From NCBI GenBank assembly GCA_027319905.1, contig DAHVMJ010000003.1:3669-67668 (forward strand): 64,000 nucleotides of DNA. Direction: 5' to 3'. Both the position numbers and the translations under genes were made by a program. This stretch comes from Candidatus Micrarchaeota archaeon. Lineage in GTDB: Archaea; Micrarchaeota; Micrarchaeia; Micrarchaeales; CABMGC01. The notes beneath the pieces are model-generated. The model had not been told where the DNA came from, ran no database searches, and saw nothing but the letters and a program-made list of their open reading frames with translations. How positions within the stretch are numbered: the stretch's first letter is position 1; the number at the start of each line of letters is the position of its first letter. Below are positions 1,922 to 29,253 of the stretch, piece by piece.

Positions 1922-2947
1922 CTACCAGATCTGCTCTATGCTGTCCAGTCTGAGCCTCTCCACGTTCTCCAGCTTGGTCTTTAGTCCGAACTTCGCCTTC
2001 ACACCGGTCACCACGCTCATGACGCGTATCTGGTCCCTGAGCTCCGGTATGAGCCTTGCGCCGAAGATCACGTTCGCGTCTGGCGCGAGCCCTTCAGTGA
2101 CGCCCGCTCCTATCCTCGTCGCCTCCTCTATGGTGAGGTCTGCTCCTCCGGATACATGCACCAGTGCGCCCTTTGCTCCTTCGTAGTCGACGCTGAGCAG
2201 CGGATGCGTCCTTGTGGATCGTATGACCTGCTCTGCGCGGTCCGTACCGGTTCCGGTGCCTATGCTTATCACCGCTGTTCCGGTCCCCTTGACCACGGTC
2301 CTGAGGTCGGCGAAGTCCAGGTTGATCAGGCTTGGCAGCATTATCGTGTCTGCTATGCCCTTGACTGCGTTGCCTGTTATGTTGTCCGATAGCTCAAACG
2401 CCTTCTCCATCGGTAGGTTCGGCACGTAGTCGAGGAGTTTCTGGTTCTCTACCACTATCACCGCATCGGCTTCTTTGCTTAGCTGCTGCACTCCCCACTC
2501 CGCCTTGACCTTCCTGCTCCTCTCAAGGTCGAACGGGAACGTGACCGTCGCTATTACAGTGGCTCCCATCTCCCTTGCCACTCTGGCCACAGTGGGCGAG
2601 GCTCCTGTCCCTGTTCCTCCTCCCATTCCGGCCGCGATAAAGACAAGGTTGTAGCCCTCGAGCACCTTTTCCAGGTCGCCCTTGCTGACGTCAGCACATT
2701 TTGCCGCAACTTCCGGGAATCCTCCAGCCCCGAGGCCGTTGGTTATCTCCCTGCCTATCAGCACCCTCTTGTGCGCCTTAACCACGTTGAGGTGCGCAAG
2801 GTCGGTGTTTATGGCTATCGTGTGCGCGCTCTTTATGCCGTTGCTGAAGAGCCTGTTCACAAGGTTGCTTCCCTGTCCTCCAACTCCCACCACCGCAACG
2901 CGCGGCGTGAATGAATCATAGTCGAATTCGTCTGCCATCCCATTCAC
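1922..2947 (-). CDS. ftsZ: Cell division GTPase FtsZ (paralog)
   Basis: 341 aa. Has VGVGGQGSNLVNRL and the tubulin signature GMGGGTGTGASP. Its start directly abuts the stop of the upstream ftsZ paralog. Confidence 0.93.
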   Translation of the reverse strand: MNGMADEFDYDSFTPRVAVVGVGGQGSNLVNRLFSNGIKSAHTIAINTDLAHLNVVKAHKRVLIGREITNGLGAGGFPEVAAKCADVSKGDLEKVLEGYNLVFIAAGMGGGTGTGASPTVARVAREMGATVIATVTFPFDLERSRKVKAEWGVQQLSKEADAVIVVENQKLLDYVPNLPMEKAFELSDNITGNAVKGIADTIMLPSLINLDFADLRTVVKGTGTAVISIGTGTGTDRAEQVIRSTRTHPLLSVDYEGAKGALVHVSGGADLTIEEATRIGAGVTEGLAPDANVIFGARLIPELRDQIRVMSVVTGVKAKFGLKTKLENVERLRLDSIEQIW

Positions 2948-4003
2948 CTATATCGCGTCAAGGCCCGCGTAGTTTGTTTCCTTCTTCTCCGCGAACTTGC
3001 CGAGTATGCTCTCTCCCTTGACACCTGTGACGATTGCTACGATCTCGAGCTGGCCCTCATAGCCCGGCACGATCCTGGCGCCCCACTTGACAGTTGCCTT
3101 GGGGTCCATGCGCTCGGTGATTATCTCACCCGCCTTTATTGCGTCGCCCAGGGTAAGGTCGCTGGCTCCAGAGATGTGTATCAACGCTCCCTTCGCGTTC
3201 TCGAAGTCCACGTCAAGCAGCTTGTTCTTGAGCACAGACTCGCTCGCGCTCGTGACCTTGTCCGTTCCCTTGCCCGTGCCGACCGATATGAAGCCCACGT
3301 CTCCGCTTCCCATTATCGCGCGCACGTCAGCAAAGTCTATGTTGATCAGGCTCGGCTGCGTGATTGTCCACACAAGCCCTCCGATCGCCTTTGCAAGCAC
3401 GTCGTCTGCCACAGCGAATGCCTCGTTCATGGGCAGGTTTGGCACAAGTCTGACCAATCTGTTGTTGTCGACTATGACCACGCTGTCGCAGTACTTCCTA
3501 AGATTCTGTATGCCCTCCTCGGCCTTGACCTTCCTGACTCGCTCAAGGTCGAACGGGTATGTTACCATCGCCACAACTATGGCTCCGGTCTCCTTCGCTA
3601 TCTGCGCTATCACAGGAGCGGCTCCGGTTCCCGTGCCTCCTCCCATTCCCGCGCACAGGAATACGAGCTGCGAGCCGGAAAGCACCTCTTCGAGCACCTG
3701 CCTGTCAACTTCCGCGGCCTTGATGCCCACGCTCGGGTCTCCGCCCGCTCCCAATCCTTTCGTTATGGTTTTACCTATAAGCACTTTCTTTATACGGTCA
3801 TCCACTATCTTGAAGTGAGTGACATCGGTGTTTACCGCAACCAACTCTGTTCCCTTGACTCCAACCTTCAGGAGTCGGTTGACAGTGTTGTTTCCTGCTC
3901 CGCCTACTCCGATCGTGACTATCTTTATCTGTGGAGTAGCACCCGAACCGCTGGTACCCAAGAATTCTGTTCCAAAGTCGCCCATCTGATCGCCAATTAT
4001 CAT
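2948..4003 (-). CDS. ftsZ: Cell division GTPase FtsZ (paralog)
   Basis: 351 aa. Has IGVGGAGNNTVNRL and GMGGGTGTGAAPVIA. Alternative start at Met7 (3985). Confidence 0.93.
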   Translation of the reverse strand: MIIGDQMGDFGTEFLGTSGSGATPQIKIVTIGVGGAGNNTVNRLLKVGVKGTELVAVNTDVTHFKIVDDRIKKVLIGKTITKGLGAGGDPSVGIKAAEVDRQVLEEVLSGSQLVFLCAGMGGGTGTGAAPVIAQIAKETGAIVVAMVTYPFDLERVRKVKAEEGIQNLRKYCDSVVIVDNNRLVRLVPNLPMNEAFAVADDVLAKAIGGLVWTITQPSLINIDFADVRAIMGSGDVGFISVGTGKGTDKVTSASESVLKNKLLDVDFENAKGALIHISGASDLTLGDAIKAGEIITERMDPKATVKWGARIVPGYEGQLEIVAIVTGVKGESILGKFAEKKETNYAGLDAI

Positions 4004-8614: not shown

Positions 8615-9337
8615 TCAGAACTTGTATCCCTCCTTCTCAATCCTGTCAGCGAGGTCTCTTCCGCCTTCCTTAACGATTTTTCCATCCACCATCACATGTA
8701 CGAAGTCTGGCTTCATATAGTTTAGTATGCGGCTGTAATGCGTGATCAGCAGCAGCCCCGCCTTTGTCCTCTGCTGGTAGTCGTTAACGTTCTGCGCGAC
8801 TACACGCACGGCATCGACGTCCAACCCGGAGTCAGGCTCGTCCAGTATTGCAATCTTGGGTTTGAGCAGCCGCATCTGCAATACCTCTATCTTCTTCTTC
8901 TCGCCTCCGGAGAAGCCGTAGTTGAGCGAGCGGCCGATTATGTCCTCCTTCACGTGTAGGTCCTTCGCAGTCTCCTTCACTTCCTCCATGAACTCTTTGA
9001 AGGGCAGGTTGCCCTGGAGCGACGCCTTGGCCGTGTTCAGGAAGTTGAGCAGACCGAGACCCTCGACCTCTATCGGGCTCTGAAAGAGCAGGAACAGGCC
9101 AAGCTTCGCGCGCTTGTCTGTTGGCATCTTGAGTATGCTTTCTCCGTCAATGAGTATGTCGCCTTTCGTCACTTTCATCTTCGTGTGGCCCAATATGGTT
9201 CGCGAAAGAGTTGTCTTGCCCGAGCCATTCGGTCCCATCAGCACGTGGAACTCACCCTCGTTAATCGTGAGACTTATGCCCCTTATTACCTCTTTGTCCT
9301 CAACTTCTACGTAAAGATCCTTTATCTCTAGCTTCAT
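8615..9337 (-). CDS. sufC: Fe-S cluster assembly ATPase SufC
   Basis: 240 aa. Walker A GPNGSGKTTL, ABC signature FSGGEKKK, Walker B ILDEPDSGLD. Confidence 0.95.
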   Translation of the reverse strand: MKLEIKDLYVEVEDKEVIRGISLTINEGEFHVLMGPNGSGKTTLSRTILGHTKMKVTKGDILIDGESILKMPTDKRAKLGLFLLFQSPIEVEGLGLLNFLNTAKASLQGNLPFKEFMEEVKETAKDLHVKEDIIGRSLNYGFSGGEKKKIEVLQMRLLKPKIAILDEPDSGLDVDAVRVVAQNVNDYQQRTKAGLLLITHYSRILNYMKPDFVHVMVDGKIVKEGGRDLADRIEKEGYKF

Positions 9338-9341
9338 TGTT

Positions 9342-10568
9342 TCACTTTTTCTTAGGCACTATCCAGAGGTTCTGCATGCTTATTCGCGGAACCGGCGAAT
9401 GCTTCCCGTTGTCAAGCTTGTCAAGTAGTATAGAGATTGCGATTTCCTTTACTATATCATTCTCTATCTCCGCAAGATATTTAGATAGGAAGCTCGCTAC
9501 GAAGATTCTCTTCGCCTTCGTCTCGTCAACGCCTCTCGACATAAGGTAGAAGAGCGCCTCCCTGTCCAGCGGCGCAGTCGCGGCGCTGTGCGACGCAAAC
9601 GCAACGTCCTTGCAATCGATTGACATGTCTGGCAGAGGCTGTATCCTTGCGTCAGGATCGAGCACGAGGCCCTTCTCCTCCACGTTCGAGTACGATCCGT
9701 TCGTGCCTCTTTCTACCTTTGCGTAGCCCTTGAGTATGCAGAACGATCTGTCCTTCAGCACCGCGCCTGTTTTCAGGACAGCCCTCGTCATCTGGTTTGA
9801 GTTGAGAATGAATGTGTTCACATCGAACTTCTGGTCTGCGTTACCCAGCACTATCTCGTTTACTAGAAGGTTGCTTCCTTTTCCGGCGGCCTCGGCGAAG
9901 GTGGACGACCTCGTTATCCTTCCCCCGTTATATATCCCGTTTAGTCGCACAGTAGAATCCTCGCCAGCGGAGATCTTGTTCAATGCCCCGATGCTCGTTT
10001 CCAGGCCCTCGTTGTGGAGCACATTGACCTCCACGTTGGACCTGTCTCCGGCATTTACAACATGCAGCGGCATGCTTGCGCATTCGGATCCGGGAGAAGA
10101 GCCGAACCATTCGAAGAGACTGAGGTGCGAACCTGCAGCGGCGTTCACTACTACCTCTAAAGGCATGCTGGAGCTGTCGCACAGGAAAAGGAAGTTGAGC
10201 TTTGCCTCTTTCCCCTCAGGAATATGGACCTCGACAACGCTTTCAGACCTGCTGGTTACGTAGCCGCCGAGCCTTTCCTCGAAACCCGCTTTGGCGTCTT
10301 CTTTATATTCGCGCGTGTCCTTCTTCGATACCCTCACAAACTCGCTGCCTGATACAAGTCCGTCCTTTCCATTATACAGGTCGAACCTCAATCTGGACTC
10401 GTCGGTTATCCGCTTTCTCAGCTCTTCGATTCCGGCGCCGTCTCCGGCTTTGGCACCCTGCGGCAACAGGAAATTCACTACATACTTCTTGTAGAGCTCG
10501 GCTGTCTCGAAAGGCATATGCTTGTAGCTCGCAATAGCTTGCTCTACAATCTTCTCGGCGTTCTCCAC
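9342..10568 (-). CDS. sufD: Fe-S cluster assembly protein SufD
   Basis: 408 aa with beta-helix-like repeats. The C-terminal DREALFYLMSRGVDETKAKRI is shared with SufB/SufD. Lies between sufB and sufC. Confidence 0.85.
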   Translation of the reverse strand: MENAEKIVEQAIASYKHMPFETAELYKKYVVNFLLPQGAKAGDGAGIEELRKRITDESRLRFDLYNGKDGLVSGSEFVRVSKKDTREYKEDAKAGFEERLGGYVTSRSESVVEVHIPEGKEAKLNFLFLCDSSSMPLEVVVNAAAGSHLSLFEWFGSSPGSECASMPLHVVNAGDRSNVEVNVLHNEGLETSIGALNKISAGEDSTVRLNGIYNGGRITRSSTFAEAAGKGSNLLVNEIVLGNADQKFDVNTFILNSNQMTRAVLKTGAVLKDRSFCILKGYAKVERGTNGSYSNVEEKGLVLDPDARIQPLPDMSIDCKDVAFASHSAATAPLDREALFYLMSRGVDETKAKRIFVASFLSKYLAEIENDIVKEIAISILLDKLDNGKHSPVPRISMQNLWIVPKKK

Positions 10569-17113: not shown

Positions 17114-17941
17114 TCATCTGTAGTAATCGTCTCCGTCCACTAGCTCTGCTGTCTGGCCCACCACTTTGTACACCTTTCGGTAGCCTATCCTCTTCAGGTT
17201 CTTCACCACCTGGGTGAACGCCTCGCCTCTTCTATGGCTGTCATCGACCACCAGAGCCACCTTGTTGGTGTTGTCCACCAGCGTCTTCAGCTCGAGCGGG
17301 TGAACGAAGAACTCGCGTTCCATCCTGCTTCCGTCCTCGAACGGCGTCTGCCCCTGGTTCGAGAAGCCAATGAGCGCGTAGCCTACGGGGTCCAGCTTCA
17401 TCTGCTTCATCTTCTCTATCACAAGCGGCGTTACCGTAAGTCCGCCGGTCATGTTCGTTATCACTATCGTCTCGCCCTTTGAGAAATACTGGAACGGACT
17501 GTGCATCCTGCAGGTAAACTCGCTTATAGTGTGCGCGTCTGGCGCGGCGAACGACCAGCCTCCGTTCGACGCATGCATGACGAACTGCTCTCCTCCCGCC
17601 TTGAGGCCTATCTCCACCTGCCTTCTCAGTATGCGCAGGCTTTCCGCGCACTCCTCAAGGCTGTTGTTCATGAACGCGCCAGCCCACAGCCTTCTGACCT
17701 TCCACTCTCCGAACATGTGGTCTTTATAGTCGAGGTCCCTGGCCAGTTTCATGAAGTCTTCAAGGTAGCGCTGATGCTGATACACGCTGAGAATCTTGGT
17801 CTTGTACACGTCCGGAACTCTAAAGCCAAATCTCTGGTTGAGTCTCGGGTCCCCTAGAACGTCTGCCTTGTCGTTTTTCTGCTCAGCTATCTTGGTCGCC
17901 GTCCTAGCGTCCTCATTGCTGTATTCCCTTACTATGTTCAT
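17114..17941 (-). CDS. Helical-domain + PRTase-like protein, operon gene 6 of 6 (degenerate PRPP loop)
   Basis: 275 aa. Motifs: FGFRVPDVY, RRLWAGAFMNNSLEECAESLRILRRQ, IVITNMTGGLTVTP, GYALIGFSNQGQTPFEDGS and VALVVDDSHRRGEAFTQV (PRTase-like hhhhDD, but [ST]G-x-[ST] is replaced by RG-E-A). ATGA overlap with gene 5. Confidence 0.75.
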   Translation of the reverse strand: MNIVREYSNEDARTATKIAEQKNDKADVLGDPRLNQRFGFRVPDVYKTKILSVYQHQRYLEDFMKLARDLDYKDHMFGEWKVRRLWAGAFMNNSLEECAESLRILRRQVEIGLKAGGEQFVMHASNGGWSFAAPDAHTISEFTCRMHSPFQYFSKGETIVITNMTGGLTVTPLVIEKMKQMKLDPVGYALIGFSNQGQTPFEDGSRMEREFFVHPLELKTLVDNTNKVALVVDDSHRRGEAFTQVVKNLKRIGYRKVYKVVGQTAELVDGDDYYR

Positions 17942-18825
17942 CTCCAGTACCTGTCTCCGTCTACCAGGTCCGCCGTCTCTCCGACGACCTTGTATACCTT
18001 CTTGTAGCCTATCATCTTCAGGTTTCGCACCACCTGGGTGAACGCCTCGCCCTTCCTGTGGCTGTCGTCAATGACCAGCGCAATCTTGTCCTTGTTCTCC
18101 ACCAGCGTCTTCAGCTCCTTGGGGTGCACGAAGAACTCACGCTCCATCGGGCTGCCATCCTCAAACTGCGTCTGCCCCTGGTTGGAAAATCCAATGAGCG
18201 CGTAGCCTACTGGATCCTTCCCAAGCTCCTTCATCTTTTCCAGCACCAACGGTGTTACCGGAAGACCTCCCGTCATGTTCACTATCGCCATAGTCTGTCC
18301 TTTTTCAAACGACCTGAATGGACCATCGAAGTTGCATGTGAACTCGTTGATTGTGTCGTCGCTTGGTGCAGCGAACGACCATCCGTACCTTGTCGCATGC
18401 TGTAGGAACTTCTCGCCTCCCATTGTCACTCCTCTCTCTATCTGCCTTTTCAGTATATTGAGGCACTCCACGCACTCCTCCAGGCTGTTGTTCATGTACA
18501 CTCCGGCCCACAGCCTTCTCACCTTGTATTCTGTGAACACCCTGTTTTCCGCATCGGCATTCCTCGCAAACTTCATGAAGCTCTTCAGGTACGGCTGCTC
18601 CTGGTATTCGCTTCGTATCGGATAGTAGTAGATGGCTGGCGTCCTGAATCCAAACTTCTGGTTAAGCGCCGGGTCGCCAAGGGGCAGGTCTTTCAGTTCC
18701 AGCGTATCCTCTGCCTTTTCCTGGTCCTCCTGCCTGTTCCTCCTGAGCTCTACCATGCGTGCCAGAGCCTTGGCGTCATTTCCTATGGTGTTTAGTACTC
18801 CCATATCCCTCTCCTCATTCTGCAA
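17938..18825 (-). CDS. Helical-domain + PRTase-like protein, operon gene 5 of 6 (degenerate PRPP loop)
   Basis: 295 aa. Closest paralog of gene 6: FGFRTPAIY, RRLWAGVYMNNSLEECVECLNILKRQ, MAIVNMTGGLPVTP, IALVIDDSHRKGEAFTQV. Confidence 0.75.
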   Translation of the reverse strand: MQNEERDMGVLNTIGNDAKALARMVELRRNRQEDQEKAEDTLELKDLPLGDPALNQKFGFRTPAIYYYPIRSEYQEQPYLKSFMKFARNADAENRVFTEYKVRRLWAGVYMNNSLEECVECLNILKRQIERGVTMGGEKFLQHATRYGWSFAAPSDDTINEFTCNFDGPFRSFEKGQTMAIVNMTGGLPVTPLVLEKMKELGKDPVGYALIGFSNQGQTQFEDGSPMEREFFVHPKELKTLVENKDKIALVIDDSHRKGEAFTQVVRNLKMIGYKKVYKVVGETADLVDGDRYWR

Positions 18826-19738
18826 TCACGTTCTTCTTGCGCGCTACCGCGCCCAGTTCCACCAGGCCCGGCGCATACGCGTTGGGCGATGCCGCCTCCT
18901 CTGCAGTGGTCTCCACTTCTTTCCTAGTCACTTTTACAAGCGGTATGATCGATGTCGCGTCAAGTTTCTGCTGCGCAATCTCGGCCGGTTTCTCAGCACC
19001 TCCTGCTACCGTGGCGCTCGTCTCCTCGTGCTTGGTCTCCGTCACTGTCACCGCCACAGCCGTCTTTCTTTTTCCGTCGAATTCGTCCCTCAGCTCCTTG
19101 ACCAGCTCCCTTGGGCTCTTGGAATAGATTATTGTGGATCCCTTGAGTATCTTCTTCAGGCGGTGGGCCTCGAGCTTTCTTACCTGGTCGGCGAGGCCTC
19201 CGGTTCTTTCAAGCACTCCTATCTTCTTGCCCTCCTTCACCGCAACCGCGAACTCGACCAGTGTGCCTTCCGCGCCTCCTATCACTATCGCCGCATCTGC
19301 TCCGGCAACCAGGGGCACGCTCCTGCCCGTGTCTCCCAAGCCCGTATACGTTATGTGGTCGTAAATCTCGTCCTTTTCAAGACCCCTGCCCAGTTTGGCT
19401 TTTTTGTTCTTCGGTACCATTACCATGACTTCGTCTTCCTCATCCTCACGAATTCCGTCCATGCCCCAGGCTTCGTAGCCGCCATAATACGCGTACGTCA
19501 CGTAGCTGTGAGCTTCCGAGTCGCCAGAAACCCCGTAAACCCTGCCTCCGTGCCTCCTCGCCCCTATCGCGACCTCTTCCGGAAGCCCGCTTCCTGCTCC
19601 GGTGACCACGTCGAACTTCTGTTCGGCGAGGGCTCTCCCGAGCTGGTGGGCCATCGCCTTTGCTCGCTTCGGGTAGTCGTATGTCTTGCCCCCTCCGATT
19701 ACCGCGATAGTCTTTCTCTTGTGCATCTTCTCAACCAT
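18815..19738 (-). CDS. LOG/SLOG-family Rossmann protein (lysine-decarboxylase-like nucleotide N-glycosidase family), operon gene 4 of 6
   Basis: 307 aa. Motifs: TIAVIGGGKT, FDVVTGAGSGLPEEVAIGARRHGGRVYGV and ADAAIVIGGAEGTLVEF (GGxxGTxxE). Has an internal acidic insert and a C-terminal low-complexity extension of about 110 aa. Confidence 0.75.
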   Translation of the reverse strand: MVEKMHKRKTIAVIGGGKTYDYPKRAKAMAHQLGRALAEQKFDVVTGAGSGLPEEVAIGARRHGGRVYGVSGDSEAHSYVTYAYYGGYEAWGMDGIREDEEDEVMVMVPKNKKAKLGRGLEKDEIYDHITYTGLGDTGRSVPLVAGADAAIVIGGAEGTLVEFAVAVKEGKKIGVLERTGGLADQVRKLEAHRLKKILKGSTIIYSKSPRELVKELRDEFDGKRKTAVAVTVTETKHEETSATVAGGAEKPAEIAQQKLDATSIIPLVKVTRKEVETTAEEAASPNAYAPGLVELGAVARKKNVIAE

Positions 19739-21281
19739 TCGTTGTCACTTTTGATTTTTCCTCAGTCCTTTTCCTTGCAGCTGTCTTGAGCGAAAGCCAT
19801 CCGACCAGCTCCTTCGGTTCGTTGGAGTAGAACACCTCGGTCTTCGCGTCCCTGGCCGCGGAGACAAACGCCTTTGTTCTTTTAATATCAACCCCGCTGC
19901 CCAGAAGGACTCCTATCGCCTTCTTCTGAGCCAGCGCGACGACAAGCTCCCTCTGTGTCATGAATTCGTTCCATCCTACCAGAGCGACTACGTCCACGCT
20001 GCTAACCAAATCGGAAGGCCATTGGAACACCCAGCCGTCCTTTTCCCGGTCAAAGCTGCTGTAGGCTATTTTTTTGTAAGCGGTTATCAGTTCCTGCGGT
20101 ATTTGACCTACGCCGAACACAGGGCCATCAGCCAGCACAGCATACACTCCAGCCCCGTTCTTTTTCGCTGTCTCTCCAACGTAGTCTGTAAGGTCCGGTT
20201 CCGGCTTGGTTCTTGAATAAACATCGAAACCGCTCTCTGCAAGCGTCTTCCCAAGTACTGTTGCTGCCATTCTTGCGGCGTGGCCTTGCTTTTTCCCAAA
20301 CAGGTGTGACTTGCCCATGAGCGAGGGGTCACCTCCTCCGATAATGCCAACCTTTTTCTTGTCGTCGCCCTTGTTTTTCGGTGCTGTATCAAGAAACGCA
20401 GGCGCCGGATGGTATGCTGTTTCGTACATGCCTGGAGACCACATCCCGTAACCCTCGTCGTTCATGTCTCTATACGCGTAGAACGCGGTGTGGCCGTTAA
20501 GACTCTTGCCGTCCTTGTCCAGGAGGTTGCCGTCATGCGTCGCTATCTTGAATATCTTAGTGTAGCCTATCTTTTCCAGGCCCGCTCTGATCATGTCGTA
20601 TGTCTTTCCAGTTATCTCGCTGTCGTCCACAACCAAGGCCGTCTTCTCCTTGAACTGTTGCAGCACCCCGAGCTCTGCCGGGTGGATGAAGAGTTCGTCG
20701 CGCATCGACGTCCCGTCCTCGAATCGGGTCTCTCCATTCTTTGACGCGCCGATCAGTACATAGCCGAGAGGCATGCCGCCAAGTTCCTTAAGCAGATCCA
20801 TCACCAGCGGTGTCGTTGGAATAGAACCCACGAGATTTGAGAGCACTATCACTTCCTCGTTTGCGAATCTAAGCAGCGGGCTTTTCGTCTTGCTTTCCAT
20901 GCTCTCTATATCGGATTTTAAGGGACCCATGAAAGCCCACGAACTCTTGTTCGTGACCTCGAAATACTTTCGGCCTCCCATCTGCAGGCCTTTGTCTAAC
21001 TGTTCCCTCAGTATACGCAGCGATTCCGCGCACTCCTCAAAGGTGTTGTGCGCAAACGTGCCGGCCCACAGTCTGCGTATGTCGTGCTCCAGCAATACTT
21101 CTCCCTTTGCGCTCTTTGCCGCCATCTCCTCGGTAAATTTGGATAGGTCATCTTTCCTGGTTATGTATTCTTTCGGTTCGACAAGTCCGAACGCGTTCCT
21201 GAACGGAAAGACCGCAGTCTCCTTCGGGTGCCACGCCCAATTGCCATTCTTGTATCCATCTATCTTTCTCAACTGAAGCAC
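19731..21281 (-). CDS. Fusion protein: helical domain + PRTase-like core + degenerate LOG/SLOG-like domain, operon gene 3 of 6
   Basis: 516 aa, GTG start. N-terminal part: RRLWAGTFAHNTFEECAESLRILREQ, IVLSNLVGSIPTTP and TALVVDDSEITGKTYDMI (canonical PRPP loop). C-terminal part: KVGIIGGGD... and VDVVALVGWNEFMTQRE, where the LOG motifs are only partly retained. Confidence 0.75.
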   Translation of the reverse strand: MLQLRKIDGYKNGNWAWHPKETAVFPFRNAFGLVEPKEYITRKDDLSKFTEEMAAKSAKGEVLLEHDIRRLWAGTFAHNTFEECAESLRILREQLDKGLQMGGRKYFEVTNKSSWAFMGPLKSDIESMESKTKSPLLRFANEEVIVLSNLVGSIPTTPLVMDLLKELGGMPLGYVLIGASKNGETRFEDGTSMRDELFIHPAELGVLQQFKEKTALVVDDSEITGKTYDMIRAGLEKIGYTKIFKIATHDGNLLDKDGKSLNGHTAFYAYRDMNDEGYGMWSPGMYETAYHPAPAFLDTAPKNKGDDKKKVGIIGGGDPSLMGKSHLFGKKQGHAARMAATVLGKTLAESGFDVYSRTKPEPDLTDYVGETAKKNGAGVYAVLADGPVFGVGQIPQELITAYKKIAYSSFDREKDGWVFQWPSDLVSSVDVVALVGWNEFMTQRELVVALAQKKAIGVLLGSGVDIKRTKAFVSAARDAKTEVFYSNEPKELVGWLSLKTAARKRTEEKSKVTTNG

Positions 21282-22153
21282 CTCTTCCCGTTACTGTCAA
21301 GGAAAACGCTGTCAACTGTAGCGACCTTGTATATCTTCTCAAATCCGATCTTCTTCAGTCCCTTTCTCATCCCAGCATAGGTCGTGCCGCCGCATTCAGT
21401 ATCATCTACCACAAGGGCGGTCTTCTTCTTGTTCCTGGCGAGCGTCTCAAGTTCCCTGGGTGGAACGAAGAACTCGCCTATCATGAGATCTCCATCCGCG
21501 AACCTCGTCTCCCCATGTTTTGAGTACCCTGCCAATACGTATGCGAATGGCTCTCTCCCAAGCTTCTGCATCAGCCCGATCAGAGGCGGCACACACTCGA
21601 ATCCGCCCACCATGTTCGCAACCACTACCGTTTCCTTTCTTTCGAAGTTTAACAGCGGGCTGCTCTGCTCGTCCTCTAGGTCTAACGCGAAGCCTTGAGG
21701 CATGCATTTCCAGCAGTCGTTTGTAAGACGCACCAGAGCGTCTCCTCCCTCGTACCTCTTCAGGCGCATGTCAACCACCTGCCTCAGTACGCTTAGAGAC
21801 TCGGCGCAGGCCACAAGGCTGTTGTTCCTGAACGACCCCGCCCAGAGACCGCGGATTCTGTCTTCATCGGCAGCAAGCCCGTCATTGATCGAAGCCTTAG
21901 CATACGATACCATGTCCGCGAGAGCCTCTCTTTTAAAACTGTAGGCGATTGGCTTCGGGAAGCCCAGTTCTGCAGTCAGCCTGAAGCCGAGGCCCTTCTT
22001 CTCCATGGCCTCTGAGCTCCCGCGAGCGTTTGGCAGTCTGGCCGTGTCCGCATCCGCGCCCCTCGTCGCTCGAGAAACCCCGCGCAATCTAGTTGTAGTA
22101 TCCAAATACACACCTCCCGTTTCCGTCAAGTACCGTGCTGTCCCCTGTAGCAA
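21269..22153 (-). CDS. Helical-domain + PRTase-like protein, operon gene 2 of 6
   Basis: 294 aa as called. Motifs: IRGLWAGSFRNNSLVACAESLSVLRQ, VVVANMVGGFECVP and TALVVDDTECGGTTYAGM. The first 49 codons read through a duplicated gene-1 3' segment in another frame, so the ATG at 22004-22006 (MEKKGLGFRL...) is the more likely start. Confidence 0.7.
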   Translation of the reverse strand: MLQGTARYLTETGGVYLDTTTRLRGVSRATRGADADTARLPNARGSSEAMEKKGLGFRLTAELGFPKPIAYSFKREALADMVSYAKASINDGLAADEDRIRGLWAGSFRNNSLVACAESLSVLRQVVDMRLKRYEGGDALVRLTNDCWKCMPQGFALDLEDEQSSPLLNFERKETVVVANMVGGFECVPPLIGLMQKLGREPFAYVLAGYSKHGETRFADGDLMIGEFFVPPRELETLARNKKKTALVVDDTECGGTTYAGMRKGLKKIGFEKIYKVATVDSVFLDSNGKRCFS

Positions 22154-23106
22154 AATATACAGCTCCCGTTTCCGTCAAGTACCATGCTGTCCCTCGTCGC
22201 AATCTTGTAAATGTTCTTGAACCCGATCTTGCGCAGTCCCTCTCTCATTCCACTGTAAGACCTGCCGCTGCATTCCGTGTCATCTACCACAATCACGGTT
22301 TTGTCCCTGTTCCTAACAAGCATCTCCAGCTCCCTCGCAGGCACGAAGAACTCATTAACCATTCTTTCTCCATCAGCAAATTCAGTTTCCCCATTGACCG
22401 AATAGCCAGCCAATGCGTACCCTGCCGGTTCCCTGTCAAGTTTCGTAAGCAGCTCGATCAGCTGGGCTGTGGTGTACAGACCTCCGGTCATGTTTGGCAC
22501 CACAATTGTCTCGTGCTTCTGGAAGCGCATCAGCGGGTTCTTGTTATTCGAGGTGCTCTCCAGGGCGGCCTCAACGAACCATCTCTGCATGCCTGCGCGC
22601 AAGCAGCTCGACTTGAGTGCTGCCACAGAGCAGTCGCTGAGTTCTCCAAGCCTGATCTCAAGATCGTTTTTCAGCAGTTGGAGGGCTTCTGTGCACTTTG
22701 GCTGCTGCCGGTCTGGATAGTCTTCTGGATCTACATCCTGATGCTGGGCGCGGTTAAGGAGCTCTCGAGCAGGGTGCTTGACAAGCTGGGGTTCGAGGGC
22801 CACGATAACATAAAGGGCCTGCTTGAGTTGGGCGCGGTGCTGCTCGCGTACGCGGTGCTCTCGATAGTGATACTGCTCTTCTTCCTGTTTATAGGCCCGA
22901 GCATCGGGATCTGAGACCTGGTTACCTTCAGATCGCCAAGCTTCAGCCGTATCTTTCTTCTGATTCAGACCGCACGCGAGGCGAGCGAAGCGAGCACTGT
23001 GTAGCCGTAGCTGGCTAGTGTCTGCAGCCTCTAGCCAGCCAAACCCAAAAACAATAAACATCAGCAACAGCAGCATCAACATCATCTGCATTTGCAGCTT
23101 GAGCAT
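22126..23106 (-). CDS. Divergent PRTase-like protein, operon gene 1 of 6 (start uncertain)
   Basis: 326 aa as called. The C-terminal 150 aa is clearly paralogous: TIVVPNMTGGLYTT, GYALAGYSVNGETEFADG, TVIVVDDTECSGRSYSGM. The RRLWAG motif is absent, leaving only PKCTEALQLLKNDLEIRL. The N-terminus is hydrophobic and low-complexity (MMLMLLLLMFIVFGFGW). The C-terminus is frameshifted by a 49-bp tandem duplication. Confidence 0.6.
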   Translation of the reverse strand: MLKLQMQMMLMLLLLMFIVFGFGWLEAADTSQLRLHSARFARLACGLNQKKDTAEAWRSEGNQVSDPDARAYKQEEEQYHYREHRVREQHRAQLKQALYVIVALEPQLVKHPARELLNRAQHQDVDPEDYPDRQQPKCTEALQLLKNDLEIRLGELSDCSVAALKSSCLRAGMQRWFVEAALESTSNNKNPLMRFQKHETIVVPNMTGGLYTTAQLIELLTKLDREPAGYALAGYSVNGETEFADGERMVNEFFVPARELEMLVRNRDKTVIVVDDTECSGRSYSGMREGLRKIGFKNIYKIATRDSMVLDGNGSCIFCYRGQHGT

Positions 23107-23333: not shown

Positions 23334-23975
23334 TTAAGCCGCACCTTCCAGTTCCTTTAAAACAATTGAAATGACCTTCTCCTCGTTTGCATCTCTATTG
23401 CCTATGCCGGAAACCGGCTTGAAAGAGTGGTCCGCATTATCTATTGTGTATAGCTTGCATTTCGGCAGACGCTCCTTCAGAATGCTTACGTCGCAGTAAG
23501 GATCCTCGCTGCCCTTTATTATCACAAACGAGGGCTTCATATCTTTGACGCCGTTCAGGTCGAAGACGCTCGAAGGCTTTCCTTCTTCGTGCAGCGAATA
23601 ACCAAGCGCTACAACTTTTGGTATGCTGTATCTGCCTCTGGCTGCCTCTAGGGAGGATATGTAGCCCCCGAAGGACTTGCCTACCAGAGCCGTCTTCTTG
23701 CTTCCGAGGAAGCCGATGGCGGCCTCCATCTCCCCCACGCTTCGCTCGGCATCCATGTCTTCTGGTTTACCGGCAAAAGAAAAGTTGAACCTCAGGACAT
23801 CGTAATCATTGCTAAGCCTGGCGAAGAGTTTCTCCACTATGCTCGTGTGCATATCGTTGTACATGCCGTGGGAAAGAACTACCCCAAGTCCGTGTCCTCT
23901 TTTGGAGTATTCCACCTCCACTTTGCGACCGTCCACTTCAATAGTTTCATGACCATTTTCAGCCAATTCGCTCAC
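23334..23975 (-). CDS. Alpha/beta-fold hydrolase
   Basis: 213 aa. Nucleophile elbow LVGKSFGG (GxSxG), preceded by VVLSHGMYNDM, with a C-terminal DNADHSF (catalytic His region). Confidence 0.75.
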   Translation of the reverse strand: MSELAENGHETIEVDGRKVEVEYSKRGHGLGVVLSHGMYNDMHTSIVEKLFARLSNDYDVLRFNFSFAGKPEDMDAERSVGEMEAAIGFLGSKKTALVGKSFGGYISSLEAARGRYSIPKVVALGYSLHEEGKPSSVFDLNGVKDMKPSFVIIKGSEDPYCDVSILKERLPKCKLYTIDNADHSFKPVSGIGNRDANEEKVISIVLKELEGAA

Positions 23976-25996: not shown

Positions 25997-26068
25997 AGCC
26001 CCAGGAGGGGATTGAACCCTCGACTTCGAGTTTACGAAACTCGCACTCTACCACTGAGTTACTGGGGC
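25997..26068 (-). tRNA. tRNA-Thr (anticodon CGU)
   Basis: The complement reads GCCCCAG-TA-ACTC-AGTGGTA-GAGT-G-CGAGT-TTCGTAA-ACTCG-AAGTC-GAGGG-TTCAATC-CCCTC-CTGGGGC-T. This is a full cloverleaf with a 7-bp acceptor stem. CCA is not encoded and there is no intron. Confidence 0.9.
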
Positions 26069-26124
26069 GCGCTATCTATAAAAACATAGGAGCAAATAAA
26101 TACTTGCTCTCAATAGCGATTCTC

Positions 26125-29100
26125 ATGGACGACTCCGAGAACGAGGATGAGGAACCAAAGGAAGTTTCCCAGCCTCCCGAAGAAATGGCCACACTCGAAG
26201 CCGAAAATGAGGAAACGCAGCCAGCCCAGCAAGAAACCCCCCCTCCTGCACCACCACCCGGACCCGAAGAGGCGCCAGAAGAGGCCCCGCAGCAGCCCGC
26301 ACAGCAGGCCGCGCAGCCGGCGCCGGAGCAGGCTCCACAACCAGCTTCCCAGCCTACGCCCGCTCCCGAACAGCCTCCCCCGAAGAAGCCGCTCTTCGGC
26401 CAGGGCATGCCGATGTCCCTGCCGAACATCAAGATCCCACAACCAAGGATACTGCTGTCAATAATAGCGATAGTCATAATCGCAGCGCTGATACTCACGT
26501 TTACCCCAAGTGTCACCACGACCACGACTACCTCCACGACCACGGTGCAGCAGGTGAATCTTTCCAGGATAAGCGCGTGCGAGCAGATAAGCAAGCCGGG
26601 CACCTACTACCTAGAGGGCAGCATAAACGACACCTCCACTAGCGGCGCCTGCATAAGCGTCGCGTCGAGCAACGTCCGCATCGTGGGCAACCTGTACACC
26701 ATAGCGGGCAGCGGTCCCTACAGCGGTCTGCCCCCGTACTCGTACGGCATAGAGGTGCGGAACGTATCTAATGTGACCGTCACAACCTTCAGGGTGCTCA
26801 AATTCTCCTACGACCTGTTCGTCAGCAACTCCAAGAACGTCAACATAGTTAGCAACAACCTCACCACCTCGACGCTTTCAGCCATGTACCTGCTCAACGT
26901 CTCGAACAGCACGGTGCACGAGAACTCCGTCTCGGACTCGCAGAGCAAGCAGGGAGGCATCTTTCTCGTGAGCGGAAGCGGCAACAGTTTCTTCAACAAC
27001 TCCGTAGCGAACAACGCCTACTACGGCATAGTGGTCAACTCTACTGACAACAACTTCACACGCAACACCTTCGGAGGCAATGCCGCCGACATAGCCTGCA
27101 ACCTCACCTCCGCCGCCCGCTTCTCAAACAACTTCAGCAATTCAAAGTGCGCGATCAACGATTATTGCGCATTCGCCTCGTGCAGCACCAACGTCCCCTT
27201 CAACATCTCCGCGGTAAAGCTCGCCCCTGGGCCGGTCAGCACGTGCGGCTCGATATACTCTCCGGGCAACTACGTGCTCTCCCAGAGCATAAGCGCATCC
27301 GCGTATCTCAACCTCTCGAATCCGCTATCCCAGAGCATCCCCTGCATCAAGATACTCGCCCCCAACGTAAATTTCGACTGCAACAACCATGCGATTAACA
27401 ACTCCGGCTACGGGATATACGTGGGCGCGACGTCAAATGTTAACGTGTCGAGGTGCGCACTTTCAAAGGACAGCTACGGCATTTTCGTGACAGGCGCGTT
27501 CAACCCGCAGATAAGGAATACCAGTGCGCAGGCCGGCACCTATGGGGTCTACATAAGCAACACCACGGGCGGAAGGCTCTCCAACGTAACGCTCGCCAAG
27601 AACAATACCTACGGTCTGTTCGTGGACTCCACAAGCGGCCTTCTCCTTGACAGCGTGAGGGCGCAGAGCAACGTGTACGGCGTCTATATCAACAGCGGCG
27701 AGAACGACGTTTTCAACGGCGGCGTTACGAGAAACAACACAAAGGCGGACATCTACTGCAGCCCCGGTACATACAACTCCACCACAGACCTGGCGCAGAG
27801 CGTCTCCTGCGGCGTCACGGACTGCAACTGGGCGTCCGCATCGTGCGCCCAGACCGTGCAGCCCAAGCTTTCCGTGTATCCGATCAACAGCTGCAGGACG
27901 ATAACCAACCCGGGTAACTACACGCTTACCCAGAACACGCTCTCCTCAGGCACGTGCTTCGACATACAGTCAAACAACGTCGCATTCAGCTGCGCATCGC
28001 ACCTGATAGTGGGGCCGTCTCCAAAGAGCGCCTTCTACATAGCTAGCAGGCGCAACGTAAGCATATCCAACTGCATCATGAGCGGGTTCGGTTCTACCGT
28101 CAACGTGACCAACTCCTCGCAGATAGACCTCAACGACCTCACGATCAACGACACGAAGAGCGGCGTCGTCTTCTCTAAAGTGTCGAACAGCAGCGTCACC
28201 AACCTTAAGGTCACACTCCAGTCATCATTCGCCTACAACTTCACCGGCGTGAACACAAGCCTGGTGTCGCACGACATCGCCTTCGGAGGACTGGGACAGG
28301 GGAGCGGTTTCCTGTTCTCCAACTCTGGAAAGAACACTGTCTCGTTCAACAACGCCACCTCGAATCCACTGCTTGGCTTCAGCTTTGTCAACTCGCGGGA
28401 CAACACAGTCTACAACAACAGCGCGTTCTCGAACAGGAATTTCGACTACTCTTGCTCCGGCTCCTCCACCGGCCTGTACTCCAACCCCATCTCCATCAAC
28501 TCCGGCCTGGCGAAGAACCAGTGCGGCTGGATGGTGGTCGTGAATCCCCTGGCGCCAAGTTCCTCCGCGTGCTTGGCGCTGTTCTCTCCGTCCCAGGTGG
28601 TACTCGGCAGCGACATGCTCTACGCCGCGGGCAGCACGTGCATCAGCGCATATGTAACCAACACGGTGTCGGCCAACACGACAACGATAGACTGCGCCGG
28701 CCACACAGTATACGCCTCTCACGGGGGCACCTTTGCCTACATCAGCGGCGCCGCGGGAGTAAAGGTGTACAACTGCATACTTCTCAACTTCACCACCGGC
28801 GTGCGGAGCACCGGGGCGGGCACTCTCGTGTACAACAACACCTTCAACGGCGGGGGTACGGCCGTGCTCTTCAACTCCACCAACTCAGGCAGCGTGTACA
28901 AGAACATGGTCTACAACATAAGCAACGGCCTGCTCTTCTACAACTCCATAAGCCCCAACGTGCACAACAACGTGCTGTTCAACAGCACAGTCGGCATAGG
29001 CCTCTATGGCGGCTCTTCGGCAACGGTAGCCAACAACACCGCGACCAGGAGCGGCACCGGCCTGCTCCTCAGCAACAGCACGGGGGCCAGCGTGCAGAAC

Positions 29101-29253
29101 AACACCTTCGTCAACTCAAGTCAGGGTTCGATAGTGTGCAGCGGCACAGCCACGAACTCCACCAGCAGGAACATAGACGACGGCGGAAACACATGCCAGA
29201 ATCCGAGCTCAACGTGCACGTGGATAAGCCTCTCGAGCTCATGCAGGGCCTAG
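26125..29253 (+). CDS. Large membrane-anchored surface protein with right-handed parallel beta-helix (PbH1/NosD-like) repeats
   Basis: About 1,040 aa from ATG 26125 (the track starts at TTG 26104). It has an acidic then Pro/Gln/Ala-rich N-terminus, one TM helix (ILLSIIAIVIIAALILTF), a Thr-rich linker, then dozens of N-x-x-N...GI...S.N repeat units. I count more than 40 N-x-S/T sequons by eye. Confidence 0.85.
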   Translation: MDDSENEDEEPKEVSQPPEEMATLEAENEETQPAQQETPPPAPPPGPEEAPEEAPQQPAQQAAQPAPEQAPQPASQPTPAPEQPPPKKPLFGQGMPMSLPNIKIPQPRILLSIIAIVIIAALILTFTPSVTTTTTTSTTTVQQVNLSRISACEQISKPGTYYLEGSINDTSTSGACISVASSNVRIVGNLYTIAGSGPYSGLPPYSYGIEVRNVSNVTVTTFRVLKFSYDLFVSNSKNVNIVSNNLTTSTLSAMYLLNVSNSTVHENSVSDSQSKQGGIFLVSGSGNSFFNNSVANNAYYGIVVNSTDNNFTRNTFGGNAADIACNLTSAARFSNNFSNSKCAINDYCAFASCSTNVPFNISAVKLAPGPVSTCGSIYSPGNYVLSQSISASAYLNLSNPLSQSIPCIKILAPNVNFDCNNHAINNSGYGIYVGATSNVNVSRCALSKDSYGIFVTGAFNPQIRNTSAQAGTYGVYISNTTGGRLSNVTLAKNNTYGLFVDSTSGLLLDSVRAQSNVYGVYINSGENDVFNGGVTRNNTKADIYCSPGTYNSTTDLAQSVSCGVTDCNWASASCAQTVQPKLSVYPINSCRTITNPGNYTLTQNTLSSGTCFDIQSNNVAFSCASHLIVGPSPKSAFYIASRRNVSISNCIMSGFGSTVNVTNSSQIDLNDLTINDTKSGVVFSKVSNSSVTNLKVTLQSSFAYNFTGVNTSLVSHDIAFGGLGQGSGFLFSNSGKNTVSFNNATSNPLLGFSFVNSRDNTVYNNSAFSNRNFDYSCSGSSTGLYSNPISINSGLAKNQCGWMVVVNPLAPSSSACLALFSPSQVVLGSDMLYAAGSTCISAYVTNTVSANTTTIDCAGHTVYASHGGTFAYISGAAGVKVYNCILLNFTTGVRSTGAGTLVYNNTFNGGGTAVLFNSTNSGSVYKNMVYNISNGLLFYNSISPNVHNNVLFNSTVGIGLYGGSSATVANNTATRSGTGLLLSNSTGASVQNNTFVNSSQGSIVCSGTATNSTSRNIDDGGNTCQNPSSTCTWISLSSSCRA

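Follow-up and report, generated by a model that had tools for sequence, protein, structure and literature searches.

A phosphoribosyltransferase-like protein carrying a degenerate SLOG domain, encoded next to an intact SLOG gene in a paralog array of a Micrarchaeota archaeon

The classification of SLOG proteins is reportedly due to Burroughs et al. 2015. Pairing of SLOG-superfamily proteins with phosphoribosyltransferases (PRTases) is a recurrent theme, known from the systems ShosTA and PsyrTA, in which a PRTase-domain toxin is encoded beside a DprA-like antitoxin (PMC11961720, PMC12961424, bioRxiv 10.1101/2022.05.11.491447), and from the YpsA family (Burroughs et al. 2015; Brzozowski et al. 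2019), where one branch and a PRTase domain are strongly linked as paired genes (PMC6459960). ShosT is a PRTase with an extra N-terminal pyrophosphatase-like domain (PMC11961720), and its toxicity requires binding of phosphoribosyl pyrophosphate (PRPP) by the DD motif (PMC11961720, PMC12961424). Covalent fusion of a SLOG domain to an enzyme domain is found in ThsA of the Thoeris system, where a SIR2 effector is under allosteric control via the SLOG dimer and the SLOG domain binds 3' cyclic ADP-ribose (3'cADPR) via G289/S290, R371, G399 and E403 (bioRxiv 10.1101/2022.05.07.491051). In the LOG protein of C. glutamicum (CgLOG), a GxG backbone and a Thr provide the phosphate site, and Arg99 serves both for ribose binding and, along with Glu122, for catalysis; dimerization of LOG proteins forms the pocket, the interface consisting mainly of the helices after the motif (PMC4979012). 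The locus described here lies in a stretch of 64,000 nucleotides (nt) from the assembly GCA_027319905.1 of a Candidatus Micrarchaeota archaeon (contig DAHVMJ010000003.1, positions 3,669 to 67,668; hereafter the window). On its minus strand, six open reading frames (ORFs; genes 1 to 6) are arranged head-to-tail at 17114-23106; gene 3 encodes a PRTase-like domain fused to a degenerate SLOG domain, and gene 4, the next gene downstream, encodes an intact SLOG protein of cluster4.

The components of this locus and the theme of SLOG and PRTase partnership are already known, whereas the SLOG clade that takes part, a PRTase-like family not described before, together with its tandem expansion, and the covalent fusion to a dead SLOG copy are new. 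The domain identities, the homology, the loss of motifs, the paralog array, the rarity of the family and the uniqueness of the fusion are secure. The locus as a whole is read, at somewhat less than an even chance, as a lineage-specific expansion of a nucleotide-metabolism gene pair that includes a docking or regulatory pseudoenzyme domain on gene 3.

Gene 3 (19731-21281, minus strand) is an ORF of 516 amino acids (aa), called as 513 aa from position 21272 in public assemblies, and is composed of a PRTase-like domain, a linker and a degenerate SLOG domain of cluster4 type (residues ~308-505; 19767..20360), identified with hhalign, BLASTP, AlphaFold2 (AF2) and Foldseek. A first-pass annotation, made from the letters of the window, had proposed that the last ~200 aa share the fold of the gene 4 product, and the comparisons bear this out. 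Aligned with five cluster4 SLOGs by hhalign, the domain gave a probability of 97.8% and an E value of 1.3e-12 over 176 columns; aligned with gene 4 by BLASTP, it showed 25% identity across the whole domain (E 5e-6). Regarding the Pfam model LDcluster4, the score was 14-17 bits, which is under the cut-off of 26.3 (E 0.0057 for the isolated domain), and the domain appears to be a divergent cluster4 homolog which the curated model would not call. An AF2 model of the domain, built on a 4-sequence alignment, had a mean predicted local distance difference test (pLDDT) score of 69.6, with the core at 80-95. The top matches of this model in the Protein Data Bank (PDB) all belonged to the SLOG superfamily, among them the molybdenum cofactor (Moco) carrier protein (MCP) 2iz5 with a template modeling (TM) score of 0.76, 1rcu (TM 0.72), the LOGs 2a33, 1t35 and 5its, DprA, and the ThsA SLOG 7uxs.

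The domain opens with KVGIIGGG (translation checked), and the elements that would form a pocket are eroded, as the first-pass annotation had noticed for both loops. The position of the first, Gly-rich and phosphate-binding loop is taken by VYSRTKPEPDLTDYV (20178-20222, minus strand; alignment, translation checked), in which the loop itself (VYSRTKPEPDL) has zero glycine and is 2 residues longer. The counterpart of the YTGLGxxGR segment with its Arg is deleted in the MAFFT alignment and has a Trp at the Arg position in the hhalign alignment, with no basic residue there. The motif GGxxGTxxE reads VGWNEFMTQRE (19947-19979, minus strand; alignment, translation checked), i.e., GGxxGT is replaced by GWNEFMT and only the Glu is kept. 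What the alignment shows as retained is the core of the fold (IGG, LG..LA, vDvv) along with two family motifs, GVLxGxG and YSxxPxEL, and the helices after the motif, which are of the LOG dimer-interface type, were modelled at pLDDT 80-95. The degeneracy thus described is real and selective, and the loss of pocket elements while structural motifs stay would be the pattern of a maintained pseudoenzyme rather than of random decay.

Gene 4 (18815-19738, minus strand; 307 aa) keeps what the fused domain has lost. Both strings quoted for it in the first-pass annotation were confirmed by translation, and an Arg of LOG type was found in addition: the Gly-rich loop VVTGAGSGLPEEV (19571-19609) contains T46, G47, G51 and P53, Arg139 is encoded at 19322-19324, and GGAEGTLVE (19253-19279; GGxxGTxxE) contains G154, G155, G158 and E162, none of which varies in five cluster4 SLOGs. 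Gene 4 and its five relatives in the alignment share three elements without change or nearly so, namely the TGxxxGxP loop, YTGxGxxGR and GGxxGTxxE. By position, R139 and the GGxxGTxxE residues match Arg99 and Gly116-Glu122 of CgLOG (PMC4979012). Gene 4 appears catalytically competent because the motifs with defined roles in CgLOG are kept.

Regarding its classification, the best and fullest match was to the Pfam family PF18306 'SLOG cluster4' (LDcluster4), with 90 bits against a cut-off of 26.3 (E 1.5e-25), which was stronger and fuller than the match to STALD (40.6 bits, residues 2-60). The closest solved relative is Thermotoga TM1055 (PDB 1rcu; E 2.1e-9); cluster4 is related to TIGR00725, for which gene 4 reached 57 bits, under the cut-off of 107. 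LOG/PpnN-type nucleotide 5'-monophosphate phosphoribohydrolases (PF03641, TIGR00730) share the fold and, by position, the Arg/Glu pair and GGxGTxxE, and LOGs were among the top Foldseek matches to the gene 3 domain; gene 4, however, gave no match to PF03641 at E<=1 and 19.3 bits against the TIGR00730 cut-off of 96.35, and reads IGGAEGTLVE, i.e., the PGGxGTxxE motif without its leading Pro, with the catalytic-type R139 and E162, whereas the gene 3 domain with GWNEFMTQRE also lacks the Arg. Gene 4 thus belongs to a LOG-like sister clade, SLOG cluster4, and not to the LOG family proper. The earlier term 'LOG domain' was right as to the LOG-type pocket and catalytic elements, and should read 'LOG-like SLOG cluster4 domain' because gene 4 fails the LOG family models and the TIGR00725 cut-off. 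A word-index protein search with gene 4 returned the query itself and two short SLOGs only.

Two further features set gene 4 apart from other cluster4 members, an acidic insert of ~50 residues (~77-128), which separates strand 3 from the Arg loop, and a tail of 78 residues (230-307) with low-complexity Ala/Thr/Glu/Lys sequence. An insert at the same site, but shorter, is present in the dead domain of gene 3 and in a second intact cluster4 SLOG that is encoded upstream of gene 1 on sister contigs (L001 1442-2107, plus strand; 41% identity to gene 4, and 46% to the SLOG of another lineage, L005). Because the three local SLOGs share this insert, which outside relatives lack, the dead SLOG fits an origin as a local duplicate of a SLOG gene. 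A neighbour-joining tree gave 87% bootstrap support to a clade in which the gene 3 domain is grouped with gene 4, with the SLOG of L005, with the second SLOG of the sister contigs and with three close relatives from a GTDB scan (two labelled Micrarchaeota, one Saccharimonadales). The sister of the dead domain within the tree received a bootstrap of only 28-34% for either local SLOG candidate, and its branch was ~3x longer than those of its clade mates.

This very long branch, along with the loss of every catalytic element, the restriction of the fusion to a single population and the truncation of the adjacent gene 1 in the window, which suggests an array in flux, would also fit a fused domain that is a functionless relic, derived from a SLOG duplicate that lost its start, or by loss of an upstream stop, and now decaying while it is translated as the tail of gene 3. 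Such a relic is improbable, given that the 227-residue reading frame of the tail is intact with no stops, that the hydrophobic core and the structural motifs (IGG, GVLxGxG, YSxxPxEL) are kept while only pocket elements are lost, and that the core is predicted at high confidence from as few as four sequences.

The N-terminal half of gene 3, described in the first-pass annotation as a PRTase paralog, holds up as such in model, structural matches and motif. The PRTase-like domain (residues ~40-262; 20496..21164, minus strand) consists of an N-terminal helical bundle of ~100 residues, with the family motif [IV]RRLWAGxFxN, followed by the PRTase core. RRLWAG, which is specific to the family, is located at 21060..21077 (minus strand); R69, W72, A73 and G74 are near-invariant in a 12-sequence alignment, and the motif occurs in distant relatives as well as in four of the five paralogs of the window, the exception being the truncated gene 1. 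In the core, the PRPP-loop-like segment VVDDSEITGKT (20601..20633, minus strand; translation checked) is kept; neither D219 nor G225 varies among 20 members of the family, nor does D220 among the 12 that are closer. Compared with the PDB, the family profile places its VVDDxExxGxS/T segment on the PRPP loops of 5esx (E 0.0017) and 1vdm. An AF2 model of gene 3 built with 19 family sequences had a pLDDT >90 over most of residues 40-260, and the top Foldseek matches of the N-terminal model were HGPRT (5esx, 4rqa) and PurF (8w7d), with probabilities of 0.97-1.00 and TM scores of only 0.40-0.45. In the full-length model the C-terminal half, without aligned homologs, had a pLDDT <50, and the two domains were modelled separately; a single combined alignment for full-length gene 3 was rejected, as MAFFT placed the SLOGs on the N-terminal domain. 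The two domains are joined by an aromatic-rich linker of 45 residues (20361..20495, minus strand) with pLDDT <50 and no homolog aligned.

Purine/6-oxopurine PRTases (HGPRT 5esx and 4rqa; 1vdm) are the best matches to the N-terminal domain of gene 3 and share with it the acidic pair, a TGKT-type 5'-phosphate loop and the xxVGG strand of the pyrophosphate loop. They differ from it in lacking the N-terminal helical bundle with RRLWAG and in the position of the HGPRT catalytic Asp (D137 in human HPRT), which is not conserved in the PRTase-like family. The low TM scores are matched by low scores for Pfam Pribosyltran (PF00156), of 13-16 bits against a cut-off of 26.3: 16.4 bits for gene 1, 13.4 for gene 2 (E 0.047) and 14.0 for gene 3 (E 0.031), and no match of genes 5 and 6 to PF00156. 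Judged from the models, the N-terminal half of gene 3 is a divergent type I PRTase-like protein with a PRTase fold and a PRPP loop, and its family has no Pfam model of its own.

The remaining genes of the array, all on the minus strand, are paralogs of this domain. Gene 2 (21269-22153) is an ORF of 294 aa with a called start at 22105, gene 5 (17938-18825) an ORF of 295 aa with a called start at 18804 (its identical copy in L001 matches the family hidden Markov model (HMM) at E 2e-98), and gene 6 (17114-17941) encodes 275 aa. The identity among genes 1, 2, 5 and 6 and the N-terminal half of gene 3 is generally 28-40%, with 65% between genes 5 and 6 and 45% between genes 1 and 2. Adjacent genes overlap or almost abut: the stop of gene 3 lies inside the start of gene 4, with an overlap of 8 nt between the gene 3 stop and the gene 4 ATG (ATGGTTGA), and the stop of gene 5 overlaps the start of gene 6 by 4 nt. 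Genes 1 to 6 appear to form a tightly overlapping operon in which genes 3 and 4 would be translationally coupled. The gene 3 protein is present as identical copies on three assemblies (ENA, Logan, NCBI), whose samples are perhaps not independent of each other; its public record is titled 'MAG: phosphoribosyltransferase [Nitrososphaerota archaeon]'. So far as the data reach, the idea that the fusion is an artefact of sequencing or annotation was rejected, on the grounds of the continuous frame and of the identical protein in these assemblies.

Gene 1 (22126-23106; 326 aa) has PRTase-like homology at 22126..22702 and is 5'-truncated (blastn, DNA alignment). From 22702 downstream, the ENA and Logan contigs (L001, L002) match the window with 99.96-99.98% identity (blastn). 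Their gene 1 is intact (L001 2124-2990) and directly preceded by the second intact SLOG (221 aa), and in the opposite orientation there are two more PRTase-like ORFs. These two ORFs (L001 2-580 and 584-1357, minus strand) are highly divergent, with a family HMM E of ~1e-10, and one of them has LLLLDWCKNSG where VVDDxExxG is expected. The window and the NCBI contig L003, by contrast, change to unrelated sequence at 22702/22703 (L001 2413-2414) in a sharp junction, which points either to a variant of the population that carries a deletion or to a chimeric join made in assembly. Gene 1 of the window is probably a 5'-truncated remnant, since the ENA and Logan contigs carry the intact gene and the window switches at this junction. 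The full system would comprise about seven PRTase-likes (five of them in the window), two intact SLOGs and one dead SLOG. Past the junction, the window and L003 show by eye the 3' part of a plus-strand ORF for a membrane protein (~22703-22914) and an alpha/beta hydrolase (23334-23975). At the junction the 5' part is missing from gene 1 and, apparently, from the plus-strand ORF as well.

The PRTase-like family is very rare. An exhaustive HMMER search with a family profile of the five paralogs yielded 50 proteins at E<=1e-3 among 1.84 billion representative proteins, of which 11 had E<1e-27, including fragments of the window's own paralogs. Word-index searches with gene 3 and with the 20-sequence family alignment returned only the query, a GTDB scan with PRTase-like patterns gave zero matches, and a JGI metagenome scan with such patterns gave one contig of 1.5 kb. 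Only one family member bears a taxonomic label (P0030, Micrarchaeota); two further members are located on contigs of 620-660 kb, and two are annotated by JGI as HGPRT. The recurrence of the fusion in other genomes, suggested as a check in the first-pass annotation, was not found among the 50 profile matches: none exceeds 366 aa save gene 3 and one spurious repeat protein, and because the other real family members are all <=366 aa, the SLOG fusion does not recur. Nor was the PRTase-like family found within 6 kb of a cluster4 SLOG in any of 80 GTDB loci, and a general rule that cluster4 SLOGs accompany this family was rejected on that basis (0/80).

These counts bear on the proposal that the degenerate SLOG is a small-molecule sensor which switches the fused PRTase-like domain in the manner of ThsA, with the stand-alone active SLOGs making or destroying the ligand. 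A degenerate copy fused to an enzyme and paired with an active one had been put forward in the first-pass annotation as the pattern expected for a ligand sensor, and this expectation is weakened by the comparison. SLOGs do serve as sensors or as non-catalytic carriers, as in ThsA, which binds 3'cADPR, and in the Moco carrier 2iz5, the best structural match to the dead domain; the order of enzyme and SLOG domain resembles known sensor-effector fusions, 7uxs is among the structural matches, and the retained Glu is the equivalent of ThsA E403, which contacts ribose hydroxyls. The ThsA pocket, however, keeps the Gly loops, the Arg and the Glu (G289/S290, R371 and G399 besides E403), whereas gene 3 keeps only the Glu, and the effector of ThsA is SIR2 and not a PRTase. 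Because ThsA binds its ligand via elements lost in gene 3, sensing would call for a pocket of a new and non-canonical kind. No enzyme for signal generation (TIR, cyclase, SMODS) was found in the operon. A selected sensor-effector architecture is without comparative support because the fusion does not recur and none of the 80 GTDB loci is paired, and a sensor role is accordingly considered unlikely.

Twelve lineage contexts of the PRTase-like family were read. Apart from the window lineage and L005, the PRTase-like gene is solitary or, in L013, a tandem duplicate. The neighbours in these other contexts are aIF5A/S24e/S27ae, S19e/L39e, the exosome superoperon, topoisomerase VI or HMG-CoA reductase. 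In L005 a cluster4 SLOG of 190 aa is located 22 bp upstream of P0007. Relatives in plasmids and phages (tblastn) and in IMG/VR were not found, and a mobile-element origin was rejected on this basis. The PRTase-likes had no match in PADLOC (E<=0.1) or PHROG, and ShosTA/PsyrTA, retron-type PRTase effectors and phage families were rejected as identities for them. The context appears to be metabolic rather than mobile.

In line with the pairing in ShosTA and PsyrTA and with the YpsA branch, the array could nevertheless be a toxin-antitoxin or defence locus, in which PRTase-like toxins disturb nucleotide pools, SLOG antitoxins counteract them, perhaps by reversing the product enzymatically, and the fused dead SLOG is a built-in inactivated antitoxin. 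Gene 4 and the L005 SLOG show weak partial PADLOC matches to PsyrA and ShosA (for gene 4, PsyrA 4e-5 over the first ~60-70 residues only and ShosA 3.5e-3 over residues 6-33 only), diversified tandem paralogs are typical of conflict loci, the array differs between assemblies at one edge, and the L005 pair lies among conflict-type genes (AbiEii, transposase, methylase). Yet the partners in ShosTA and PsyrTA are unfused and without a paralog array, and the antitoxin there is DNA-binding and DprA-like, not of the LOG-like catalytic type seen here (gene 4 against DNA_processg_A, 19.5 bits with a cut-off of 29.6); the YpsA pairs are bacterial, belong to a SLOG clade other than cluster4, and have no described dead-copy fusion. 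The PRTase-likes match no PADLOC model, and their N-terminus is a helical bundle where ShosT has its pyrophosphatase-like domain. Solitary genes among housekeeping neighbours make up most of the family, a setting in which a free toxin would not be tolerated, the count of five to seven putative toxins is set against two antitoxins, and plasmid, phage and viral relatives were not found in the searches above. A toxin-antitoxin function is therefore rated as improbable, to the same degree as the functionless relic.

As an expansion of a nucleotide-metabolism gene pair, the locus may be pictured as follows. A SLOG of the gene 4 type would act as a nucleotide N-glycosidase that splits a nucleoside 5'-monophosphate into base and ribose 5-phosphate. 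The PRTase-likes would bind PRPP or another 5-phosphoribosyl compound via the DD...G.T loop and form N-glycosidic bonds or, in reverse, break them, and the two proteins together would constitute a module for nucleotide salvage or turnover. Gene 3 would have arisen by fusion of a PRTase-like paralog to a local SLOG duplicate, after which the fused copy lost the phosphate loop, the Arg and GGxxGT, changed about three times as fast as its intact relatives, and kept the Rossmann-like core and the dimer-interface-type helices. As a pseudoenzyme, the dead domain would then act most likely by protein-protein contacts, pairing with the active SLOG from the overlapping gene 4, or with itself, and thereby tethering the PRTase-like catalytic domain to the SLOG enzyme or coupling the two allosterically. 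Confidence in this oligomerization mechanism is modest. It is favoured because the pockets of LOGs arise at the dimer interface of the helices after the motif, because those helices are kept with high confidence in gene 3, and because the active paralog gene 4 is translated from the overlapping next gene.

Several points weigh against this picture. A cluster4 SLOG adjoins the PRTase-like family in just 2 of the 12 lineage contexts, the window lineage and L005, and the link may be incidental. The L005 pair is surrounded by genes for AbiEii, a transposase and a methyltransferase, which would fit a conflict system. The fusion was seen in one population only, and the AF2 model of the dead domain stands on only four aligned sequences, with residues 96-132 unreliable. 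A literature search found no paper mentioning TIGR00725 or LDcluster4, and PF18306 only in one metagenomics survey.

A bolder version of the regulatory idea would make the locus a new type of archaeal nucleotide-based regulatory or conflict system, in which the pseudo-SLOG with a rebuilt pocket gates the PRTase-like effector, the catalytic SLOGs make or clear the ligand, and the paralogs each handle a different base or target, as an archaeal counterpart of the Thoeris/ShosTA logic; this is a long shot, rated below all the other readings.

Cluster4 is the third SLOG clade seen in a gene pairing with a PRTase, after the DprA-like clade (ShosTA, PsyrTA) and YpsA. Repeated pairing points to a general biochemical rationale for joining a protein that binds or breaks 5-phosphoribosyl compounds with an enzyme that makes their N-glycosidic bond. 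The natural covalent fusion, with active and dead copies side by side, offers a compact system for partner interaction and for the function of SLOG pseudoenzymes. The members of the rare PRTase-like family come from uncultured archaea, including at least one Micrarchaeota genome, and salvage PRTases could matter in such archaea if their genomes are small. The impact is limited by the origin of the fusion from a single uncultured population and by functional statements that are inferences throughout.

Regarding the genomic contexts of cluster4 SLOGs elsewhere, in two Micrarchaeota loci (L019 5232-6516, L020 816-2668) a gene for ribulose-phosphate 3-epimerase directly precedes, in the same direction, a close relative of the gene 4 SLOG, after which come genes for S-adenosylmethionine (AdoMet) decarboxylase and a Hel308-like helicase; the adjacency to the epimerase hints at a link of cluster4 SLOGs to pentose-phosphate metabolism or supply. 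Many bacterial members, in contrast, are found beside enzymes of coenzyme A (CoA) esters rather than beside PRTases. In ~20 bacterial loci (L030-L069 and others; Binatia, delta-proteobacteria, Syntrophobacter, Chloroflexota) the neighbours, as read from the sequence, are a putative MaoC-like hydratase and family III CoA-transferase on the strand of the SLOG and a putative acyl-CoA dehydrogenase and amidohydrolase on the opposite strand. Among GTDB loci, the SLOG closest to gene 4 (L018 3837-4361, plus strand) has a 370-aa ORF (2191-3300, minus strand; ~250 aa from the first Met) divergently upstream. By eye this ORF resembles orotate PRTases, its PRPP loop being altered (VLVDDLVTRFDSK), and its match to Pfam Pribosyltran has an E of 0.0074. 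The pair would be a second, unrelated PRTase beside a cluster4 SLOG. The record is labelled Saccharimonadales, and its neighbour genes look archaeal.

In L013 (5288-5941 and 6001-6786) and L016 (5001-5675), distant PRTase-likes are found at a conserved place that follows the exosome superoperon of archaea (proteasome alpha, SBDS, Rrp4/41/42, L37ae); those in L013 form a tandem pair, and many genes nearby are apparently fragmented. In L007 a gene of 285 aa (9125-9982) is located 18 bp upstream of the PRTase-like P0009 and is absent from the otherwise syntenic L010; it shows weak similarity to the C-terminal domain of SAM hydroxide adenosyltransferase (E 1.4e-4, below cut-off).

The array of the window is flanked by housekeeping genes (ValRS, HIT, RNHCP, SufBD, DEAD-box helicase, IleRS), being placed between ValRS/HIT/RNHCP and the DEAD-box helicase. 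Apart from a single tRNA gene, ~2.9 kb past the cluster, no RNA family was found in the window. This gene, tRNA-Thr(CGT) at 25997-26068, is followed 36 bp further on by the start of a gene on the opposite strand (26104-29253), which encodes a protein of 1049 aa with a Pro/Glu/Ala-rich N-terminal region and subsequent NosD / right-handed beta-helix repeats.

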